Notes: generated from the letters alone by a model not told the origin. A DNA stretch of 32,000 nucleotides from Candidatus Absconditicoccus praedator (GCF_021057185.1 NZ_CP054059.1:990001-1022000), one strand, 5' to 3'. Shown: positions 4,250 to 27,563, numbered from the stretch's first letter. Program-made: numbers and translations.

Positions 4250-4528
4250 TTATTTTTTGATAGTTCATATCATTCATTGGTTGAGCTTATTCATATATTT
4301 TCAGCTAATTAGTTTAACTGTTGCTAACCTTCATCAACAATTTGGACAAAAAACATCAGTATTTTCAGGAAGTTCATTTATAAAAACTCAAGCACAATCT
4401 TCTGTTATTCTTTCTTTATTTATTTTGATTAGTCTTCAACTTCCTCCTTTTTTGTATTTTACAAGCTTTTGTCAACACTTACAATAAACAGTAAGCATTT
4501 TATATTTTGTAAGTTTTCTACCAGACAT
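4250..4528 (-). CDS. zinc-ribbon protein, 92 aa (hypothetical)
   Basis: ATG 4528, TAA 4250-4252, 279 nt. MSGRKLTKYKMLTVYCKCGQKLVKYKKGGSGRLIKINKERITEDCAGVFINELPENTDVFCPNCGGRLATVKL... has paired CxC and CxxC motifs. Contains several in-frame TGA=Gly. Confidence 0.55.
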
Positions 4529-4555
4529 ATATTTGAAATTAATATTCAAAAAAAT

Positions 4556-4577
4556 AGCATGTGTAGTTACACATACT
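4556..4577 (-). terminator. weak putative terminator after the 53-aa ORF
   Basis: A 6-bp AT-rich stem, atgtgt (4559-4564) pairing with acacat (4569-4574), followed on the - strand by gcTATTTTTTT. Confidence 0.25.
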
Positions 4578-4588
4578 ATCTTAAATTG

Positions 4589-4750
4589 TTATTCTTCAAG
4601 TGCAGGTTCCTGCTGCTGCTCCTCTTCTCACACTCACAAAACATATAAGGTTTCTCTAGATGATTTGTCTGCCATATCTACAAATCAAGGAGTAGAGTCT
4701 ACTTTTGATATTGGATGATCGATTTCTTCAAATATTCATTTTCCTTCCAT
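4589..4750 (-). CDS. small acidic protein, 53 aa (hypothetical)
   Basis: ATG 4750, TAA 4589-4591, 162 nt. MEGKGIFEEIDHPISKVDSTPGFVDMADKSSRETLYVLGVGEEEQQQEPALEE. The frame opens only after an in-frame stop at 4784-4786. No recognisable family. Confidence 0.35.
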
Positions 4751-4872: not shown

Positions 4873-7800
4873 TTATTTGTTATAGGATTTAATTAAATTA
4901 TCATACAAAAATACAGGTATAATAATCAAAGTCAAAATAGCAGACACAGACAAACCAAATATTATAGACCAAGCCAAACCACTCCAAACCGGGTCTCCAA
5001 GAATAGTTGTAATTCACAAAACTGTAGTCAAAGAAGTAATAATAATAGGTCTAAGTCTGGTTTTACCTGCATTTATTATACTAGACTTCAAAGTCCATCA
5101 TCTTGCCAAAAGATTGTTCATATACTCTATCAGAATAATCGCATTTCAAACAACAATACCTGCCAATGCTATCACTCATATCATAGAAGTTGCACTAAAA
5201 TACTCACCTGTAAGCAAATACAACATAGTAAAACCTGGGAAAACACCAAAAAATCATAAAAGGAAAGTTATCATTATAACACCTCAAATAGCAAATCACT
5301 TGAACTGACCCACCATCAAGAAATATATCAACATTAAAGCTATTATCATAGCAACACCAAGATCTGCAAAAGTATCCATAGTAACTTCCCACTCTCATCA
5401 AAAATCTATTTGGAATTTTTCTCCAGTTGCTTTATCCTGTATTTCAACTCAATATGGACTCCATCAAGTCATTTCAAATGCATCTCCCCAAAAATCATCA
5501 TTGAAAAATGAAACAAACAATCCTATCACAGGATACACCACAGAATTTTCTCACATTTCTCAATAAATATATGCAGTTGGTCTAAGCTGATCTGTTCTTT
5601 TGAAATCATCAGACTCCATAGGCACAATATCCGCTACTTCTTTCAGTGGCACTTTTCTTCAAGTTTCACTTGTAAACCTGATATCATCAAAACTATTAAT
5701 ATCATCAGCATATTCATCATCTGCTCTTACAAACAATCATATTTCTTCTCTTGCAGAATCATCACGGTATATTCCAACCTTTCATCCATCAAATACATTA
5801 TAAACAGTATTCCTTATTTGTTCTGCACTCAACCCAAGTCTGGTTGCTTTTTCATGATTTATTCTAACATCATAAGTTGTTTGATAATCTTGAACAGTAG
5901 TATAAACATCTTCTACACTTTCTTTTGATAAATAATCATAAGTTGTTTGATACATCCAATTTGTTAGATTATTTATTTCCTGATAAGAGGTACCTGGTTG
6001 GCCTGACACCTTCATTTTATAAGTTGCTTGAACAGGTGGACCTGGTGGTTCCTCCAAAACTCTAATTTCAGCATCTGGATATTTTTCTTTTATATGTTTT
6101 GTAAGCAAATCTCTAAATTTTATTACAAATTCTGGAGAACTTATATCTCTATTATCTTTGTTTAGTATATTTACTCTACTAGATATTTGATTTTGTTGCT
6201 GCCTTTCTGCTGCACCACGGAAAGTATTTGCAAAATCAGGAACAGGAGGCAATCCTACCCAATAAGATGTGTTTTTAATTATATTCAAATCTTGCTGAGG
6301 ATATTTATCGTTGTCCACTTCTGGAGAAAATTTTCTCATAAAATCTGACATGTGTTGAGCAACTTGTTTTGATTTATCCAACGATGTATCTCTTGGCATA
6401 TCTATCCAAACAAAGAAATTATCCTGATCTGACTTAGGCAGCATTTGAGCCTTGAATATATTCAAAAATATTGGAACAAAAACAACCAGTCACAAAGCTC
6501 ACCAAAAAATCATTTTTAGAGAACTTCTTCTAAGTTTTTTGTTTTCTCATATAAAGTACTCAAGTATGTTTACATACCATTTTTCAATTTTTGTTGTTGA
6601 AACTTCATGAGCTCAACTATCAGCAACTTTATCAACATCCTTTAGCTTGTATGATTCTTTTTTCTTATCAAATCTTGGATTGTCAGCCAACATATAGGCA
6701 ATAAATGGATTTATACTAAATGCTATAAAAAACGAAGCAGTCAGTGCTATTATTGCATATTGAGGGATGGGTCACATATACTCTCCCATCATATCAGCCA
6801 CAAAAAACATTGCCACAAACGCCAAAATTCTAGTAATAGTAGCCAAAACCACTCCAAAACCTACTTCATCTACAGCATCTTTGATTGCTTGTAGTTTATT
6901 TTTTCAAGTTTTAACTCTTTCATCTAAATGCCTAGAAATATTTTCTACTACAACAGTACTATTATCTACCAACATACCTAATACAAGTATCAAAGCAAAA
7001 AGAGTTATTCTGTTTACATTATCTCATATACTTAAGGCAACAAAAAATGTAATACCAAGGGCCAATGGTATAGCAATACTATTATTTAATGCATCTCTAA
7101 ATCAAAGATAAAACAACAAAACCAAAAACACTATAATAATAGCCTGAAAAAGATTAGTTAAAAGCATATTAGTGGCACTTTGAGCAGTTTGTCAGTCGTC
7201 CTGTACTGGCTGAATATGGTAACCTTCTGGAAGTGTAGGTTCAAGTTTTTCTATTTTTTCTTCTATATCATCCACCAAGAAAATAGAATTTTTATCTGGA
7301 GCTTTTGCTATACCAAGATACACTGCATCTTTGGAAGATTTATGATCTGCAAAAAAAGTATAATGAGTTTGTGGAGATGCTCATTTATATATTCTAGCAA
7401 GATCACCAAGATACACAGGAGCTCACTCATGCTCTCAAACTACAAGTCTTTCTATATCCTCTACTGAAGAATACTCTCCTGACACCTTCACTTGAGACAA
7501 ACTATCACCGTATGATATAGTTCATCAAGGCTGATTTTCATTATTTTCTTTGATAGTTTGAATAACTTGTAGCATATCAACCCCTCTTGTATGAAATTTT
7601 TCTATATCAAAAAGTATATTTATATTTTCTTTTTCTGCTCAATTCAGATAAAACCTTGTTGTTCAATCAATCTGTTTGAACTCATCAACCAACTGGTCTC
7701 ATATCTTCCTAAGTTGTAGCATATTTTCCTCGTCGTCTAATGGCTTGTCTTCATGATAAACTGCTATTGTGTATATAGGAATTTCATCTGGATCAATTGG

Positions 7801-8193
7801 TTGCACATCAGGTCTTTCTACTCAGTATGGAGACAGATCTAGATTGGAGTATATTTTGTTGTAAAGTCTTGTAGTTGCAACTTCTTGATCCATCCCAACC
7901 TCAAAACTTACCATTACTCATGCTTTGTGTGGCATTGAAGTTCATTGAATATCATCTACTCATTCTATTTGTGAAAATACTTGTTCCATTTCACGAGTAA
8001 CAAGATTTTTTACTTGTTGAGAATTATACCCTGGTGCTTCTGCCATAATCTGAAATGCTGGCACTTCTATGTCTGGATTGTACTGTTTTGGTATAGTATA
8101 CCAAGAAAAAAATCAGGCAAAAACAATACAGATTATTACCACAGCAGTTATTTTAGGATTTTGTATCCAAAAATTCGCAAATTTTCAAAACAT
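4873..8193 (-). CDS. RND-superfamily efflux transporter (AcrB/AcrD/AcrF-like), 1106 aa
   Basis: ATG 8193, TAA 4873-4875, 3321 nt, continuous under table 25. N-terminus MFGKFANFWIQNPKITAVVIICIVFAGFFSWYTIPKQYNPDIEVPAFQI. TM bundle with FLVLLFYLGFRDALNNSIAIPLALGITF...GMLVDNSTVVVENISRH. C-terminal repeat LAGIVVGNAIILIEY...AGKTRLRPIIITSLTTVLG. Confidence 0.9.
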
Positions 8194-8310
8194 CGTTAAA
8201 TTTTTATTAAATTAAATATGACTTTAAAACAAATCCATTTATATCATTCCTACATAAAACACAATAGTTTCTACTAAAAATCTATTCTATTTTAACACTC
8301 TAAATTTTTC

Positions 8311-10212
8311 TTATCTTAAGATGTCACCATACTCTATATCACCTTCCACAATACAATCTCACATACTACAAGCTTTCTTATCCACAAAAACCTTCTCAAA
8401 ATTGTTTTCAGATTTTTTCTTGTATACAAATGAATTTCAATAATCATACCTTATTTTATTGTATGGTACAGTTAAACCATAATCTCTAGACTCTCACAAA
8501 AACACATCCAAATTCATTCATATTCTTAATTCTTGAGGAGTTTCATTAAGAGTTATTTCTACAGGTAATGTTCTGGAGAACTCATCTACAATAGGTCATA
8601 TATTACTCACATATCATTCATACTCTTTTTCATTGAAGTCGGTTTTAGCTATAGCATAATCTCATTCAGTTATATCTTCCATCTCACTTTCAGATACCAT
8701 CACATCAATTTGTAAATCTTCCATAGAAGAAATCTCAAACATAGCAACCTGAGGATTTACCAACTGTCATATTTGAACATATTTTTTAGTAATTATTCAA
8801 TCAAATGGAGCATATATTACTGAGTCATCTAGTTCTTGAGACTTCATATCCAATTCCATATTCATCTCATCTATTTGTGCTTGTATTTCTGATAGTTCTG
8901 CTTGTTTTTGATCTTTTTGAGAATTTAGCATATTTTTTGCTTCTTCGTATTCTTGATTAGCTATTTCTATCTGGTTTTCAAGTACATCTTTTTCAGTTTG
9001 AACATCATCCAAATCTATATTTGAAGATATTTCAGACTGATCCACTTTTTCTTTTGCTGTATTGTACTCTTTTTCAGCAGAATCTATAGCATTCTGAAGC
9101 TCATCAATCGCAGATTTTTCTTTTTCCTTGAAATCATCTATATTTTGTAAAGATGCTTGTATTCATACATTAAAACTTCAGTCTGTTCATATTATCATAT
9201 CTTCTATATCTGACTGATAGTTGGTAGTTTTTTCTTTCAGCTCATCTATTTTTGATTGAGGAAAAGTTGATCATGAAACACTGTTATCCAAAACATCATA
9301 AAAAAGGTATGAAAAACTACTTAAATCAGAAAAAAAATCCTCGCCATACTCAAGAAGATCTTTAGTTTTCTCTTTTCTTTCTTCTCATTCATAAGAATCC
9401 AACTCATCAATTTTATCAATATACTCTTCATAATCAGATCTTAGGCTCTCCCACTGCCTTTCTGATCTATCTTTCAATGAAGATTTTCTTGCCGAAAGAT
9501 TTGTTTCAAAATGATTGTTTTTATTTTTATTTGCATCTGATACTCACAAAATCTCATCAGTAAAATCCAAAAAATTTCTTGAAAGATTTCTAGAGTTTCT
9601 CAAAGCAGACTCAGCACCATCATATATACTTTTCTCTTCTTGTTCCAATTGAGAAGATTTATTTTCCAAGTTTAATTTTGCCATATCCAACTGTAGTTGA
9701 GCATTTTCCTTTTGTGTATTGGCTATATTTTGCTGTGTTTGGGAAAGTTGTTCAACATTTACAACCGAACTTCAAGCGTGCTCCAACTGTCTTTGAATTA
9801 TGTTTATATTTTCTTCTGCTTGTTGAACTTGAGATCTAGTAGCCTCTATTTGTTGTTCAAACATATTTTCAGTATTCTGCTGAAGATTTTCCATGGTTTG
9901 TATAGTATTTTCTATACCATCATAAGCTATAGAAGCATAGTTTGTATCAATATTTGCTATTGGCTGTCCTTGTCTTACAAAATCACCCTCTTCATAATTT
10001 AAATTCACTATAAATCATTCTACTTTTGGCTGTAATGTTGTTTGTCTATCAGGCTGTACTACACCTACATAAGACTCTTCACTCATTAATGCTCAAGTAG
10101 ATACCTCATATTCACTTTGATATGTTTTTGGTTTTGAAGAAGTCTCTTCTACACCACATCAGTATATTGTAGATATTAGTATAAACATTCATAACATTAA
10201 AAACTTTTTCAT
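8311..10212 (-). CDS. HlyD/membrane-fusion-protein family efflux adaptor, predicted lipoprotein, 633 aa with an extended coiled coil
   Basis: ATG 10212, TAA 8311-8313, 1902 nt. Signal and lipobox-like MKKFLMLGMFILISTIYGCG, with the Gly before the Cys encoded by TGA. Lipoyl-like FIVNLNYEEGDFVRQGQPIANID. About 370 aa of heptad-rich Q/E/K sequence. Then SVIYAPFDGIITKKYVQIGQLVNPQ and a beta-barrel-like tail. It lies directly upstream of the RND gene. Confidence 0.8.
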
Positions 10213-20532: not shown

Positions 20533-20837
20533 CAAAAAAATCAACAAAATTATTAAATTCATACAAACAGCCCTATATTGATAATTTAAAATAATATATT
20601 ATGATAGAAGATAAAAATTATATACAAAAACTTGTAGAACAAAAAGACATTGAATGACTTAAAAGGGAATGGCAAACTATTGTCAATATAAAATCACAAA
20701 TAGTCGATGCTTTATCAACTTGTTCAAAAAGGAGACAAAAAGATTTTAAAACCTTAGAAGAGCTTGAAAAAAAGCAAAGACAAATTACTCAAGCTCTGAA
20801 TGAACTTGAACCAAAATCAAAAACTAGTCATTAACAA
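20533..20837 (+). repeat. direct repeat, copy 1 (about 305 bp; core 20613-20837)
   Basis: The 225-bp core matches 25709-25933 with 4 mismatches and no indel (offset 5096 bp). The upstream 22-mer caaaaaaatcaacaaaattatt (20533-20554) recurs at 25633-25654. The stretch between is more diverged, with a 4-nt length difference. Confidence 0.9.
20601..20834 (+). CDS. small helical protein, 77 aa (hypothetical), intact copy
   Basis: ATG 20601, TAA 20832-20834. [77 protein letters not shown]. Confidence 0.6.
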
Positions 20838-21022
20838 GTTTAGTCTTGGATTGTTTCAACAAAACTTAATTTTTATTATCTTAGAATTGTTGACTTTTTT
20901 ATTCAAACTTTTTTCTTAGCTACCTAAAACCTTCAAACATCCTCCTTAATCTCTTTCCTTTTTTGCTTACTCTAGTTATCCTAATTACTGTTTATTATAC
21001 TTATTATTTCCCAAAAGATTTT

Positions 21023-21919
21023 TTATACTATTCACTCATTTAGTCTTCTAAGCAACAAACTTGTTTCTTCTCTTTCCTTTTTTTCTCCTTCTAATCTTTC
21101 TTCTCTTGCTTGTTCTACTTCTTCTAATTTTTGAATTGCTGATTCATAAAGTTCTTTTGAAATAGTTCATGCTGGTATTTCTATATGGTTTCATCTTGGG
21201 TATTCTATAGTTCATCAGTGAAAGTATGCATCCAGTTCTTCTCTTGTGACAGGGTCTTGTCGATAATTGTACCTATCATCTCATATCTGGTCTAATAAGT
21301 TTTCTTTGGCTGTATTAAACTCATCTTCATATTTATCTTCTGGGATTGAATCTTCACGTCTTATTATATCTCTCACCCTTGCTATTCATCTACTATTAAA
21401 CAACTCTATTCAATGATAACTTAAATCATCCACATTATCCAACTGTGCCTTCATTGTAACAAACTGTATAGTATCCCAAGCTTCTACAAATTCTGCACTA
21501 AATATATCTATCTCTCTTCATTTCTCTCATTCTGTTTTTGTACTAAGATCTCAACTTTCATCCAACTTTCTTCTTTCTGAAGATTCAAATATTCTTAGAT
21601 CTCAATCCTCAAATTCTATTTTGTATCAAGCAGCTTTTGCTGAAACTGTATATCGTTCTATTGTTTTATCTCTCACTCAATCTCTTAAATCTACATGGAT
21701 CTGATACTCTAAATCCATGCTAAATATAGATAAAGGATGGTTTGTATCTTTTTTGTATACCAAAAATCTATCGTCTGCTATCTCTTCCACTCATACATTA
21801 TCTATATCATATCAGTCTCTTTCAAGTCAGGCTGATAGTATTTCTTCATTCCTTTCCAAAAATTCAGCTTCTCTTTCTTGTCCTTGTTGCTCTATTTTAT
21901 TATCCATTTTTTCATTCAT
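21023..21919 (-). CDS. acidic hypothetical protein, 298 aa (third gene of the orphan operon)
   Basis: ATG 21919, TAA 21023-21025, 897 nt, checked codon by codon. MNEKMDNKIEQQGQEREAEFLERNEEILSAGLERDGYDIDNVGVEEIADDRFLVYKKDTNHPLSIFSMDLEYQIHVDLRDG... It starts 12 nt after the stop of the 1094-aa gene. Confidence 0.65.
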
Positions 21920-21931
21920 TTTTAACTAATT

Positions 21932-24900
21932 TTATCAAGGTAAATATTTTTCTATAAAATCTTCACTGGTTTCCTCTTCAGGTAGTCTCTCTCTAAGCTG
22001 TTCAAGTACAACATTCCTAAAATACTCACTTCACAATCCATCTATATCATAGATATGTTTTTGATCTTTTTTCTCTATAAGAGCCTGCTCGAATAGTCTC
22101 TTCATCCTAGACTTCTCTTGATTTAATTTAATAATGATTTCTTCATAATTATCAACGCTTTCTGGGCCTATCATATTAAGTAATCTTTCTTCAAAAATCT
22201 GGTCTATTATTCTTTTCCCTTCATCTCTAAACTCTCATGTGCTTATCTCTTCATTCTCTGCTTTCTCTACTAAATTTTCAAATCTACTATCAAGCTGGCC
22301 TTCTTCTCATTGATTTCATTCAAAATTATTCATTACACTTTCTAATGTAATTCCAGTAGTTAGTATACTTGTAGGTATTGTTCACCTTGCACTTAGTGTA
22401 GACAATGATCCTCAATAATCTGAATTTATAGCTCTTGTGGTTCATCTACCCATAAAAGCACCCAGTCATACTTTATCTGAAAAATCATTAAATCTCCTCA
22501 TTAAGTCACTAACTTCATCTGGAGATCTTGCTCTTCATCAATAAAACAATGCTACAATAAGGTTTGAAACAACTTCTTGAGTTAAATTTTCAGCACTCAT
22601 ATCTAACTCACCTTGAGAAAATCCATCTATTCCCATTGATATTCCCATTAAAGATGTAGCATCCATTGCTACTTCCCTTGATCTACTCATATCATCTCTA
22701 AATCTCATTCTTCTAGTAGCACCAAGATATCCAAATTGTGTCATAAATGTTAGTAAGCCTTCGGATACACCTTCACCATAAGGATTTTCAAAACTTTCCC
22801 CACTTAATGCACTATCTGTAACTTCCTCTCAAAGTAAATATCAAAAATGAAATGGAATAGCTTCACCTGCTCATCTTGCTCATCTTAAAGCATGTCATCA
22901 CATACTACTGCTATTATTTATCATAGCTCTAGCTCTTAGTCATCATCTAACATTTAAAACTCTTGCTCCACCTCTTGCTAACAAATATGAACCTCTAGCA
23001 GCTAATGCAACAGCTCATAATCATACAGCTGAAGCAGCTACTGTTATAGCTAATTCTCTTGCAACAATTGCTATTGCCTCTTTTTGAGTGTCTGACAAGT
23101 TGAATCGTCATATACCTTCAATATCTCAATACATTTCAAGTAAAGGATTGTCTCAATTATATCCACCACTACGATTAGAATTATTTTCAATTATCTCTTC
23201 AACAATAGCAGATTGTATTCATTTTTGTATAAATTCTTTACCTAAGTAATCTGACATATTATCAACTATCATATCCATATTTTCTTCCAAAAATCTTTTT
23301 CTTTCATCCTCTTCTGAGCTAAGATCTTCTTTATTTCTTAACTCTTCTAATTCTTCTTCTAATTCATTTCTTTGTGCTTCAATTAATCTTTCTCTGTCAT
23401 CAAAAGACTCTTGGATTTGTTCAAAAAATTCTCTTGCTTTTGTACTTGAATATTCTCAATTTTCATCATTAAAAAGTCACATTTGCATAAGTTTGAACAT
23501 CATAGTATTTTCTCATTCAGGTATACTATCTGCAAACTTTCAAGTTCTACTATCTACTCATTTTTCTTCTATCATTTTATCATATCTATCTACTTGAGGA
23601 GATGGTCACTGTGCTGAACTAATGGGTCTTTCAGGAACAAGTTCTCAGCTATCAGAAAATGTTTCTAAAGATTCATTAAATTCAGCAATAAGTCTATCTA
23701 TTCATTTTTCTCATACATAATCTATAAAATTATTAATTTCATCTTCTGATGGAATTTGTTCTAGATTTAATGGTATATAATCATCATATTCATTTAATGC
23801 ATCAGGATTTTCTAATATATACTCTGATATTTGTTCACTAAAATTTTCTCAGTCCAATCACAATTCTCTGATTGTTTCAAATGTTTTGATATATTTATCA
23901 TGTCATATATATTCATTGTCAAAAAAGTCTTTTACAATCTTTCTATCATCAAAAATTCTATCTAATCTTTCTCTTACCTCAGGGTCATCTGTGTCTACAA
24001 CACCAGTATGTTGCTCGTTTTCTATATCAAGGTTTTCATCGAAAATTTCTTCTATTACAACATCTCTTATTTCATCTAATCAGCTTTCAATTTTATCAAA
24101 AACATCTTCTTCCCAATTTATATCTCTTAGATAAGGATTCATTCTTGATGTCCTATCATTTGTCAATGTTTGAGATTTTATCAAACTATCAGACATGCTT
24201 TCAAAGATCTCATTTATTCTTTGAAAATTTTCATCATCTTGATTTAAAAATCTTGATCACTCTTCTATATTTTCTTCCAAAGCTTCCAAAAATATAGATA
24301 TTGTATCTACTTTTTCATTTATTCTTTCAGCTTTCTCATAAGTTTCTCTAAATTCATCACTTTCTACATATTCTCTTTGGGCTTCATAATTTTGCATCAT
24401 ATCCAACACTCAAGCAATAGGTTGATATTGTTCATTTGCAGACAAAAAATCATCTATAGAATCATATCATTGTGCTTCTTCTAAAATATCACTTAAATTC
24501 TCTCTATGTTTTTCTCAATCATATTGAAATTCAACTTTTCAGTCTGTCATATCCATATCTAGCACTCTATCAGTATTTTGTAGTTGCTCATAGTTTTCTT
24601 TTATTCATGGATAAGCATCTACATCTACACCATTGTGTTCAGCTATTTCTTCCCAACTTACTCACCTATATACAAGCTCCAAAATACTTATATAAATATC
24701 TTCTCAATCATGTCATTCATATTTCAACATTATCTCTCAAGTATCTGAAATTTTGAATAAATCACTTTGTTCAGGATTTATTTCTATTGATTCTCAAGCT
24801 TGTATCTGATCTGGACTTTGTAGTTGTGAGTTTGATTCCAAAATATCTTGCATATCAACTCAATGATCATCTGCAATTTTAGACAACACATCTCATGGTA

Positions 24901-25216
24901 ATATATCATATTGTATTATACCATCCAAATGTTCTTCTATGGAAGAGACAATATTATCTACCATATCTTTATTACTTTCTATGTTTTTACCTAATTCTAA
25001 AGACTCAATAACTAATTCTATAAAAGCATACTGTAAAGCTTCTTTTTCATACTCTTCAAGATCTTCACTATCAGACACCTGTTCCAAATGTTGCTCAGAT
25101 TTTTCTACAACATAAGAAACAAGTTCTTGCTTACTTTCATATTCAAGATTATCTTTTATATCTTCTGTATTTTCTTTTTCCTCTATTCTCCACATTGTGA
25201 AACTTTCAATGGACAT
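21932..25216 (-). CDS. giant acidic LysM-domain protein with central hydrophobic/Gly-Arg-rich segments, 1094 aa (hypothetical)
   Basis: ATG 25216, TAA 21932-21934, 3285 nt. Every codon was checked and there is no in-frame TAA or TAG, with dozens of TGA. LysM-like YDILPGDVLSKIADDHGVDMQDILESNSQLQSPDQIQAGESIEINP lies at about 24773-24910. The hydrophobic AIAIVARELAITVAASAVGLGAVALAA lies at about 22990-23077. A TGA-dense stretch VRGGLRARAM..MGGHALRGARGAG lies at about 22865-22951. Confidence 0.75.
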
Positions 25217-25218
25217 TT

Positions 25219-25470
25219 TTATAGATTATCCAGTAAAGATTCTGCCTCTTTTACTTCTTCTTGATATTCTTTTTCTTCTTTTTTCTTTTTTATTTTATTT
25301 TTTTGGTTTTGTAATAATAATCAAATTTTATCTTTTAAATTTGGATCTTTTTCCAAAGATTTTTTTACCAAAACTTTTTTAAATTCTTCTAATTGATCTA
25401 TAGTGTTAATTATTTTTTCTCTTTTATCTTCTGAAAATCTATCCCACTGAGAGATCAACTTTTTTTTCAT
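25219..25470 (-). CDS. small lysine-rich helical protein, 83 aa (first gene of the orphan operon)
   Basis: ATG 25470, TAA 25219-25221. MKKKLISQWDRFSEDKREKIINTIDQLEEFKKVLVKKSLEKDPNLKDKIGLLLQNQKNKIKKKKEEKEYQEEVKEAESLLDNL. Its stop is 2 nt from the ATG of the 1094-aa gene. Confidence 0.55.
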
Positions 25471-25632
25471 GCTCTGCCTCAAAAATAGGGATTTTTTGAT
25501 TTTATTTATATTTTCTTGGTTTCAACAACTCATAAAAAATTATGACAGCCTAAATACATAATAAATTATATCAGTTTTTTTATAAAATGCAAATTTGATT
25601 AATTACTAAAATAAGATTTTACAATACATATT

Positions 25633-25933
25633 CAAAAAAATCAACAAAATTATTTTATATGTACCCAAAATAATTTTATTGATTATCTAAAAATGATATT
25701 AATGAAAAAAAAATTATATACAAAAACTTGTAGAACAAAAAGACATTGAATGACTTAAAAGGGAATGACAAACTATTGTCAATATAAAATCACAAATAGT
25801 CGATGCTTTATCAACTTGTTCAAAAAGGAGACAAAAAGATTTTAAAACCTTAGAAGAGCTTGAAAATAAGCAAAGACAAATTACTCAAGCTCTGAATGAA
25901 CTCGAACCAAAATCAAAAACTAGTTATTAACAA
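25633..25933 (+). repeat. direct repeat, copy 2 (about 301 bp; core 25709-25933)
   Basis: See copy 1. Mismatches fall at 25768 (TGG>TGA), 25867 (AAA>AAT), 25903 (synonymous) and 25925 (CAT>TAT). Confidence 0.9.
25702..25930 (+). pseudogene. second copy of the 77-aa gene, out of frame with its ATG because of an A9 tract (pseudogene or phase-variable)
   Basis: The conserved frame runs from 25712 to TAA 25928-25930 but is closed upstream by TAA at 25700-25702. The ATGs at 25693 and 25702 are in the +1 frame. ATG 25702 is followed by 9 A (25705-25713), and removing one A gives MKKNYIQKLVEQ... in frame. Confidence 0.6.
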
Positions 25934-27563
25934 AATGCAGGTAAACTCAAGCATAATTTTCCACTCATACAACTTTTAACTCCTCTCAATCATCCAAAAT
26001 CAAACTTCAAGTATCAGAAGTCTGACCACCCGATTCTGCATAAAAAGGCGTTTTATCCAAAACTACTACTCTTTGTCAGTCTACTTCAAAATCTTTTAAA
26101 ACACTACTATCTTGAGTTTCCAAAGTATCATATCCAACAAATTTAGTGGCAGGAATTCAATGCAAATACTTCGCCCAGTCTATTCATCTTTTGAATACAT
26201 CTTTTGTTCACTCACGAGATCTTTCTCTGGCTTTTTCCATTTCTTTTTCAAATCAACACAAGTCCACAGCAAGTCAATTATCTGTAGCTATCTCCTTGGT
26301 AAGTTCTACAGGAAAACCATATGTATCATACAAAAGAAAAATATTTTTTCACTCAATCTCTTTTGAAGAATTTTTCATTATTTCATTCAATTTCTGCCTT
26401 CAATTATTTATTGTTTTTTGGAATTGAGATATTTCGTTTAGGATAGAAGAAACTATTGATTCTGTATTATTAGAAATTTCAATATAGTAAGTTCAATATT
26501 TCTTATTAATTTGATCAACCAGGTTTTTCACAAAATCATCCAATTTTGCATTTTCATCAAGAGAAATTACCGAATAATACAGCCTTCTAATCAGTCTCCT
26601 AAGCACATATCCCCTACCCTCATTACTTGCAATTACTCAGTCTCATATCATAAAAACAGCTGTCCTTATATGATCTGCTATTATTCTAAAATGTTTTGTA
26701 GTATTGTTTTCCTTATCAGAAAAATCATTTTCATGTTTTTCAAATGGAGGATATTTTTTGTCTACCAAATCTTGTATAGCAAGCATTATAAACTCAAAAA
26801 GATCACACTCAAAAACTGTTTGTTGTCATTGCAAAATCATTGCCAGTCTTTCCAATCACATACCTGTATCTACATTTTGTTGAGAAAGTTTGGAAAAAGT
26901 TCAGTCTTCATTTTTGTAAAATTCCATAAACACATTATTCCAAACCTCCAAAAATCTATCATTTTCTCACATATCCCAATCATTTGGCCCCCACTCTTCT
27001 CATCTATCAATATGAATTTCTGCACAAGGCCCACATGGACCTATCTCTCAAGCAGGACCTCGGAAGTTATCTTCCATTCAAATAGCTTTAATTCTTTGGT
27101 CAGGAATTCATATTTCATTAAGAATTTTTCTAGCCTCAGTATCTTCTCATATTCACAAACTTTCATCACCAGCAAAAATTGTAACCCCTATTTTTTCCAT
27201 GGGAACTCATATATACTCATTCAAGAACCTGATAGACCATGTCAAAGATTCTTTTTTGAAGTAATCACCCAAAGACCAATTCCCTAGCATCTCAAAAAAT
27301 GTAAGATGTCTTTCATCACCAACTTCATCTATATCTCAAGTTCTTAATGATTTTTGCGTATTATAAAGTCTTTTTCATTGAGGATGAGGTTTTCATACAA
27401 GATAAGGCACAAGTTGTTGCATTCCTGCAGTAGTAAACAACACAGTTTTGTCTTGGCTATCTGGTACTAGTGAAGCATATTTTAGATAAGTATGATTTCT
27501 ATCTGGATCTTGCCAAAACTCATCCCAAAGTTTTCTAATTTCTTCTGAGGTTAATTTTTTCAT
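25920..27563 (-). CDS. alaS: alanyl-tRNA synthetase, catalytic and tRNA-recognition part only (547 aa); editing and C-Ala domains absent
   Basis: ATG 27563, TAG 25920-25922, 1644 nt. [118 protein letters not shown]. It ends ...GVYLHFVNN*, with the final codons lying inside repeat copy 2. Confidence 0.88.

Follow-up and report, generated by a model that had tools for sequence, protein, structure and literature searches.

The 32,000-nt stretch NZ_CP054059.1:990001-1022000 of Candidatus Absconditicoccus praedator (GCF_021057185.1), here referred to as the window, harbours three consecutive genes coding for proteins of 83, 1094 and 298 amino acids (aa). The largest product is an acidic protein with a LysM domain and a single helix of transmembrane (TM) grade. 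The locus is firmly supported as an accessory, lineage-restricted module that is adapted to genetic code 25 and carried on an insertion. The large protein is tentatively regarded as a scaffold that spans the cell envelope and is tethered to the wall. Coordinates of all features are given in Table 1.

When the window was read with UGA as a sense codon (table 25), 41 open reading frames (ORFs) of at least 80 aa were obtained, compared to 8 with table 11. UGA encodes invariant glycines of housekeeping enzymes, namely in the SHMT motif SAggHLTHGH and in the P-loop of YchF; the code is therefore clearly table 25 (UGA = Gly) and not one in which UGA stands for Trp. In-frame UGA codons number 51, 17 and 1 in the three genes, 51 being the UGA-Gly codons of the 1094-aa gene. 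The relative synonymous codon usage correlates with that of the rest of the window with coefficients of 0.93 and 0.87, while values for neighbouring genes range from 0.75 to 0.955. The block shares the codon preferences and UGA usage of its genome and is therefore not a recent import from a donor with the standard code or a different composition. A preliminary description of the locus had argued for such an adaptation to the code, which is borne out, although the block is still an insertion flanked by repeats.

ORF calling with table 25 yielded the three genes and the operon-like packing described before: only 2 nt separate the stop codon of the 83-aa gene from the start codon of the large gene, and 12 nt separate the large gene from the 298-aa gene. 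An alternative start of the smallest ORF at position 25533 leads to a 104-aa form, which is absent from the NCBI annotation. The high acidity noted earlier was also confirmed. Asp and Glu account for 23% of the residues of the large protein (5-21% in products of neighbouring genes) and for 25% of those of the 298-aa protein. The N-terminal part of the large protein, about 710 aa in length, is extremely acidic.

The LysM-like motif previously placed at residues 103-148 was recovered by the Pfam model PF01476 (E = 1.6e-9, model positions 3-42 of 43) with a score of 38.0 bits versus a gathering score of 20.9, and the assignment held in the alignment check. A family profile compared to the PDB matched the LysM structures of Ecp6 (E = 7e-10), LytE, CEBiP, MltD and, weakly, SafA. 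Two further LysM modules suspected by eye at residues ~165-215 and ~225-275 were discarded: the isolated segments gave no Pfam LysM match at E <= 10, hhalign assigned them a probability of 0.3% against the LysM segment and a BLAST comparison of the protein with itself found nothing. The remaining ~1050 residues of the large protein match nothing.

A block of several hydrophobic segments had been proposed for the protein. The TM-grade segment LAITVAASAVGLGAVALAA is real, with a mean Kyte-Doolittle hydropathy over 19 residues of 2.14 and no charged residue within the 19-residue stretch. It is, however, the only such helix and not part of a multi-segment core, with no other 19-residue segment of the protein exceeding 1.0. 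The first 25 residues C-terminal to the helix contain six Arg and neither Asp nor Glu, whereas the N-terminal flank has a net charge of zero. The RGG/RGA-rich stretch described before is real as well (residues 741-797). UGA makes up 8 of its 12 Gly codons and hence the majority, as stated there, but this equals the gene-wide share of 63% and is thus not special to that place. For the C-terminal domain, weak matches to HI1450/DUF440 'DNA-mimic' proteins and to DUF3567 (E 0.0008-0.05, below the cut-offs) were rejected as compositional noise.

In line with the preliminary description, none of the three proteins has a signal peptide or an N-terminal hydrophobic region as judged from 10-residue hydropathy scans. 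Maxima over the first 70 aa are 1.71 (large protein, at residue 61), 0.69 and 0.34, compared to 2.94 and 2.60 for two exported control proteins encoded in the window, a HlyD-like lipoprotein and a DUF4012 protein. The statement that no family is recognisable was likewise upheld beyond LysM: searches of Pfam, PHROGs, NCBIfam, PADLOC and the PDB with the three proteins, and with segments of the large one, found no other family. Among the 38,880 PHROGs families, only matches based on LysM (transglycosylase, endolysin and sporulation protein; residues ~97-154) were obtained at E <= 1. The PADLOC defence models matched neither the large nor the 298-aa protein, and small ORFs only at chance level (E 0.002-0.04). 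No recombinase family in Pfam, NCBIfam, PHROGs or PADLOC matched any of the three products, and these scans showed no hydrolase, adhesin-repeat, secretion or phage-tail signatures for the cluster proteins. No function was assigned by profile or structure methods.

Table 1 Features of the locus; positions are counted from the first nucleotide of the window
Feature	Position	Strand	Remarks
83-aa gene	25219-25470	minus	Basic, Lys-rich product, no family; 83-aa form annotated by NCBI
1094-aa gene	21932-25216	minus	Acidic LysM/single-TM protein, pI 4.2
298-aa gene	21023-21919	minus	Acidic product, no family; adjoins the C-terminal domain of the large gene
LysM domain, residues 105-146	24779-24904	minus	Pfam PF01476; conserved in Candidatus Vampirococcus lugosii
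Most conserved family motif GGYNGDNPLLEMYGDIEGIGRFNLS, residues 684-708	23093-23167	minus	Directly before the TM helix; from alignment and pattern check
Single TM-grade helix LAITVAASAVGLGAVALAA, residues 722-740	22997-23053	minus	GxG in mid-helix conserved in Candidatus Vampirococcus lugosii
Arg/Gly-rich juxtamembrane stretch, residues 741-782	22871-22996	minus	
C-terminal helical domain, residues ~955-1094	21935-22354	minus	Separate ORF or sole surviving part in several relatives
Left repeat copy	20613-20837		Terminates in a remnant of the alaS 3' end ('LVND*' vs 'FVNN*')
Right repeat copy	25709-25933		Includes the final 14 nt of the alaS-like gene; its copy of the small ORF has no start
Intact 77-aa small ORF	20601-20834	plus	Codons 5-77 in the left repeat; annotated by NCBI; no family
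Best sigma-70-like promoter match upstream of the cluster	25565-25593	minus	TTTGCA-17-TG-TATAAT; consensus match only
Terminator-like hairpin	20787-20811	minus	Part of the left repeat; located 212 nt downstream of the 298-aa gene

Relatives of the large protein and the conserved pair

When homologues were sought by word-indexed searches, both the single protein and a family profile returned only the self-match on the 1.13-Mb contig and a table-4 mistranslation of it. The latter stems from a Logan assembly (L001) whose DNA is identical to positions 21257-25738 of the window. One end of L001 lies 30 nt inside the right repeat; contig ends are expected at the boundary of a repeat. The other end (21257) falls within the 298-aa gene for no visible reason and may reflect a variant or a drop in coverage.

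An exhaustive HMMER scan of 1.84 billion representatives detected a homologue with 28% identity (E = 4e-43) that can be aligned by eye over its full length, along with several short proteins whose similarity is confined to the C-terminal ~130 residues. Two additional matches (P0004 and P0008) turned out to be unrelated repetitive proteins with scores inflated by repeats. The full-length homologue is encoded on contig JAEDAM010000037.1 of Candidatus Vampirococcus lugosii, an epibiotic predator of Chromatiaceae, and goes unmentioned in the description of that organism (PMC8080830). With this protein and partial relatives in four lineages from metagenomes or metagenome-assembled genomes (MAGs), the cluster is no orphan, as it had been called before.

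In the GenBank assembly of V. lugosii the homologue is split into 942 and 131 aa at an A-run (L002, 3660-3740). The Logan assembly SRR13241709 (L007) encodes a continuous protein of 1078 aa, or of 1039 aa when counted from the conserved start MSIEQFT. This assembly reads through the A-run. The split is considered an assembly error, and the public gene model is probably a frameshift or homopolymer artefact. The idea that the C-terminal domain is generally a separate gene is thus only partly true.

Both full-length proteins have in common the start MSIE(S/Q)FT, the LysM domain, the pre-helix motif SG.Y.G.NP.L.MYGDIEGIG.FNLS, a helix with a central GxG, a basic flank behind it, further motifs such as FGYLG.T..M.FR and the C-terminal domain. 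At the place that holds the six Arg in the large protein of the window, the V. lugosii homologue has five Lys or Arg and no acidic residue. Its gene is preceded by a pilin-like (N_methyl) gene on the other strand and followed by one whose product, a surface protein exceeding 1871 aa, has a CLIPPER-family match. A homologue of the 83-aa gene was not found upstream of it.

No relatives were detected in JGI metagenomes with a profile and a UGA-aware DNA pattern, nor in IMG/VR (two profiles and two patterns), plasmids and 50,697 phage records. The UGA-aware patterns recovered the window and the related loci, and the negative outcome of the collection scans is therefore considered real. The family is new at the sequence level and built around a known kind of domain. 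Judged from these searches, it appears so far to be confined to the Vampirococcus-related lineage.

The preliminary description treated the three genes as a unit. Co-occurrence across the relatives points instead to a conserved pair, consisting of the C-terminal domain and the 298-aa protein, which also occurs without the LysM/TM part. In the ENA contig L004, which shares 72% nucleotide identity with positions 22904-21065 of the window, a 298-aa homologue with 57% identity begins 12 nt after the end of the homologue of the large protein. In L003, L008 and L009 (including MAG GCA_964532625.1) as well as in L006 (MAG GCA_041694255.1), only the C-terminal domain is present as a short ORF of 175 or 82 aa, directly followed by the 298-aa homologue (12-nt gap in L003); neither a LysM nor a TM part was found upstream of the short ORF in these loci. 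Adjacency of the domain and the 298-aa gene was thus observed in four of five lineages (window, L004, L003/L008/L009 and L006), with a distance of 12 nt wherever it was measured.

For the 298-aa gene, pairwise dN/dS values lie between 0.24 and 0.42, and those of the C-terminal domain between 0.26 and 0.70; dS is close to saturation. Since the values are low, also in the lineages lacking the LysM/TM part, both are working genes under purifying selection, and the pair can function alone. On the basis of these comparisons, the evolutionary core of the module is the C-terminal domain of ~130 aa together with the 298-aa protein, and not the gene triplet.

Two in-frame TAA codons were observed in the relatives. 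One is located in the large gene of L004 (528-530), where the window has UGA (Gly). The other is codon 7 of the 298-aa homologue in L003 (~699-701), L008 and L009, which are three independent assemblies; L004 has CAA at this position. Both are single transitions in genes that are still under purifying selection and could be due to a nonsense mutation with a restart, or to something else.

Flanking repeats and the insertion

The three genes are bracketed by a direct repeat of 225 nt, the two copies of which are 98% identical and spaced by 5096 nt; weaker homology extends for another ~85 nt on one side. The left copy keeps the ATG of a small ORF. In the right copy the same ORF has no start and is preceded by an in-frame TAA. 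Because the repeat restores the small ORF on the left and leaves a start-less fragment on the right, the cluster looks like a 5,096-bp insertion without integrase between the alaS-like gene and the small ORF. The 77-aa ORF is presumed to be the target gene restored by the insertion. Such an arrangement would arise if a circular DNA carrying a copy of the 3' part of the target recombined into the target, which would yield a restored gene and a start-less fragment. The block itself encodes no recombinase.

The neighbours of the module differ in every lineage. In L006, a tmRNA gene (79.6 bits; 4283-4678) lies ~110 nt upstream of the truncated module, and in L009 a tRNA gene (61 bits; 1-69; anticodon apparently UUU, cut by the contig end) was found ~80 nt upstream. 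L008 carries an identical block beside another gene, which has a sub-threshold match to a NERD nuclease. By our own rough estimate, there is about one tRNA-type gene per 25 kb, and two such adjacencies are therefore unlikely to occur by chance. The DNA available on either side of the V. lugosii copy showed no flanking repeat.

These features resemble cis-mobilisable elements (CIMEs) and islands at tRNA or tmRNA genes, which are likewise bounded by direct repeats and restore their target by a copy borne on the element; the position of relatives beside tRNA and tmRNA genes adds to the likeness. The block differs from them in its 225-nt repeat, which is much longer than usual att cores, in the absence of an integrase, excisionase or transfer gene, and in its target, here a small protein-coding ORF and the 3' end of alaS and not a tRNA gene. 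In a wider interpretation, which we consider unlikely, the block would be a minimal mobile element of predatory code-25 bacteria belonging to the candidate phyla radiation (CPR). Lacking an integrase and restoring its target, it would move between 3' ends of genes and tRNA and tmRNA sites by recombination functions of the host or supplied in trans, and would carry a new wall-binding, membrane-inserting protein and its partner for the predator-prey interface. If this is true, the truncated copies beside tRNA and tmRNA genes would be ends of elements, perhaps gene halves that are rejoined upon excision. The target-restoring 225-nt repeats, together with the tRNA and tmRNA adjacencies, would be among the few hints of gene movement between code-25 genomes.

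Upstream of the cluster, an 18-nt inverted repeat (AATCAACAAAATTATTTT / AAAATAATTTTATTGATT; 25639-25684) with 94% complementarity and a 10-nt loop was found in the diverged part of the right repeat. It overlaps a TTGATT hexamer resembling a -35 element and could be either an operator or a coincidence of the AT-rich sequence.

Possible roles of the module

The large protein is tentatively interpreted as a bitopic trans-envelope scaffold tethered to the wall. Its acidic, largely helical N-terminal part of ~710 aa with the LysM domain would lie outside the cell and be followed by the TM helix. The Arg/Gly-rich juxtamembrane region, a conserved and weakly hydrophobic region and the helical C-terminal domain of ~130 aa would lie inside. 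This topology is suggested by the positive-inside rule applied to the flanks of the helix, the charge pattern of which is conserved in V. lugosii, and is also favoured by the solubility of the C-terminal domain and the 298-aa protein, neither of which has a signal peptide, and by the usual function of LysM domains outside the cytoplasm. Neither member of the pair has a TM helix, and the two are probably joined in a soluble complex in the cytoplasm. The present genome and that of V. lugosii have this core in fusion with the TM and LysM parts. The large protein would thereby tether the complex to the membrane and, through predicted peptidoglycan binding by the LysM domain, to the cell's own wall. 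The V. lugosii gene lies between genes for a pilin-like and a surface protein and therefore in a cell-surface neighbourhood. Export of the acidic N-terminal region would have to proceed without a signal peptide and may be helped by the membrane potential acting on the acidic residues. Such aid is known for short N-tails.

Polar hub proteins of the FimV/HubP type from Gammaproteobacteria, with their defining features as given in PMC12918733, provide the closest comparison for such a scaffold. Like the large protein, they have LysM, only one TM helix, an acidic low-complexity region of great length and, at the C-terminus, a small conserved domain, which recruits partners in FimV/HubP. Their counterpart in the window differs in several respects. 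It has no signal peptide, its N-terminus being acidic and without a hydrophobic h-region. The acidic ~710 aa precede the helix and a basic, Gly-rich region follows it. No FimV, HubP or TPR model of Pfam or NCBIfam was matched at E <= 1 by the whole protein or the isolated C-terminal domain, and the host is a monoderm-type CPR bacterium. Of the defining features, only LysM and one TM helix are shared, and the likeness is one of analogy and not of homology. Among LysM proteins in general (MltD, LytE, SafA and Ecp6), the domain at residues 105-146 is canonical. Most members of this group have a signal peptide or are part of a hydrolase; the spore-coat protein SafA has no signal peptide and acts in a different cellular setting.

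Several points weigh against the scaffold. The missing signal peptide of the large protein is its weak point, and we know of no bacterial precedent for the export of ~710 N-terminal aa by a downstream TM helix alone. The acidic region would be located on the LysM side of the helix and not on the cytoplasmic side as in FimV/HubP, the signature of which is absent from the Pfam and NCBIfam results. No 298-aa gene is found beside the V. lugosii copy. The proposed topology is based on two sequences and a positive-inside rule applied by hand. AlphaFold2 models computed from two-sequence alignments were too poor to be of help, with a predicted local distance difference test score of 36 for the large and 55 for the 298-aa protein, and a Foldseek comparison of the 298-aa model to the PDB gave meaningless results (best E 0.7, TM-score below 0.15). 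Finally, an accessory, island-borne and fairly fast-evolving gene is equally typical of a weapon or of a mobile element.

Since ~710 residues lack a signal peptide for export, the main rival to the scaffold is a protein that acts on another cell. After synthesis in the cytoplasm, where its helix would be shielded, perhaps with the small and basic 83-aa protein as chaperone, it would be released or handed over to the prey, whose peptidoglycan the LysM domain would bind and into whose membrane the helix would insert. This gives a concrete form to the role in host attachment or wall breaching that the preliminary description had offered as speculation, and which is still purely speculative. LysM and a TM helix without a signal peptide form a combination typical of proteins acting on the envelope of another cell. 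The gene is accessory and island-borne with dN/dS around 0.3-0.4, and the V. lugosii copy is found among surface and pilin-like genes. The family has been seen only in the lineage related to Vampirococcus, the described members of which are epibiotic predators (PMC8080830). However, Pfam, NCBIfam, PHROGs and PADLOC contain no hydrolase, toxin or pore-former domain matching the proteins, no secretion apparatus is encoded nearby and there is only a single short hydrophobic helix. The peptidoglycan of the prey is also covered by an outer membrane, and two lineages retain the core of C-terminal domain and 298-aa protein although they lack the LysM/TM part. We regard such a delivered weapon or penetration protein as possible but doubtful.

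A wholly cytoplasmic acidic scaffold is quite unlikely. Its helix would serve as a monotopic or peripheral anchor or in oligomerisation, and the function of LysM would be unrelated to the wall. Cytoplasmic LysM proteins do exist, for example Kbp of E. coli, and the absence of signal peptides from all three products, the extreme acidity and predicted helicity of the large and the 298-aa protein and the solubility of the core pair would all agree with a cytoplasmic location. The helix is of full TM grade, however, with 19 uncharged residues and a strong and conserved positive-inside asymmetry, and LysM domains are overwhelmingly extracytoplasmic.

Derivation from a phage-like element, with the 83-, 1094- and 298-aa products as chaperone, tape-measure or ejection protein and distal-tail-like protein, is less likely than a delivered weapon and very unlikely overall. 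Tape-measure and ejection proteins resemble the large protein in being long, helical and without signal peptide and in having a wall-binding LysM domain and a hydrophobic segment; a small upstream gene, a partner of ~300 aa downstream that pairs with the C-terminus, the flanking direct repeats and the tRNA and tmRNA adjacencies of the relatives would fit as well. This is countered by the lack of tape-measure, tail-chaperone or distal-tail matches in PHROGs and Pfam, of capsid, tail tube, terminase, integrase or other phage genes in the 32 kb and of relatives in the phage, plasmid and IMG/VR collections, and by the intact genes with native codon preferences and signs of purifying selection. None of the searches assigned the proteins to a phage tail module or any other known system, in keeping with the preliminary description. 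A pseudogene or non-coding cluster is ruled out by the intact reading frames and dN/dS values well below 1. The weight remaining after the wall-tethered scaffold and its three rivals is left to an explanation not yet imagined.

Only for few CPR bacteria has the lifestyle been observed, and the Vampirococcus/Absconditicoccus group (Absconditabacteria), which lives by epibiotic predation, is one of these. A lineage-restricted combination of LysM, a membrane helix and a conserved two-protein core on an insertion provides a concrete, clonable candidate for envelope or prey-contact biology. If it is merely a lineage-specific envelope protein, the value lies in the corrected V. lugosii gene model and a defined domain map.

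Other features of the window

The block is flanked by housekeeping genes (an alaS-like catalytic fragment, ychF, greA, folA and glyA). The product of the alaS-like gene (25920-27563) has only 547 aa and consists of the class II catalytic region, matching positions 1-532 of 552 of the Pfam model tRNA-synt_2c; the window contains neither an editing domain nor a C-terminal domain belonging to it. Neither tRNA nor Rfam matches were found in the 32 kb. A 107-aa neighbour labelled 'HPF-like' by eye received no support from Pfam.

With 41 sigma-70-like sites found in comparison to 36 expected, the promoter match upstream of the cluster is weak evidence. The hairpin in the left repeat has a twin at 25883-25907, after alaS. 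Upstream regions of genes in the window are simply AT-rich. Of 23 candidate starts, one has a Shine-Dalgarno-like motif within 30 nt upstream (GAGG at -10 of the ATG of the 83-aa gene); it is missing from all 21 further gene starts of the window that were inspected, and the motif was dismissed as uninformative with regard to translational coupling. Between the 298-aa gene and the left repeat there is a spacer of 185 nt, in which a strong AAGGAGG precedes an ATG and an ORF of six codons (20920-20945). This is odd in a genome otherwise without Shine-Dalgarno motifs and may be the relic of a lost gene start.

On the plus strand of the window, C (5696) outnumbers G (3619), and the GC skew is negative in all 1-kb windows, being strongest over the cluster (-0.31 to -0.41). 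The majority of genes in the window are encoded on the minus strand. Genes for an AcrB-family transporter and a HlyD-family lipoprotein (4873-10212) are located 11 kb from the cluster. An AcrB-like gene, identified by eye, also lies ~2 kb from the truncated module in L006 (1-2868), and the proximity in both loci could be residual synteny or coincidence.

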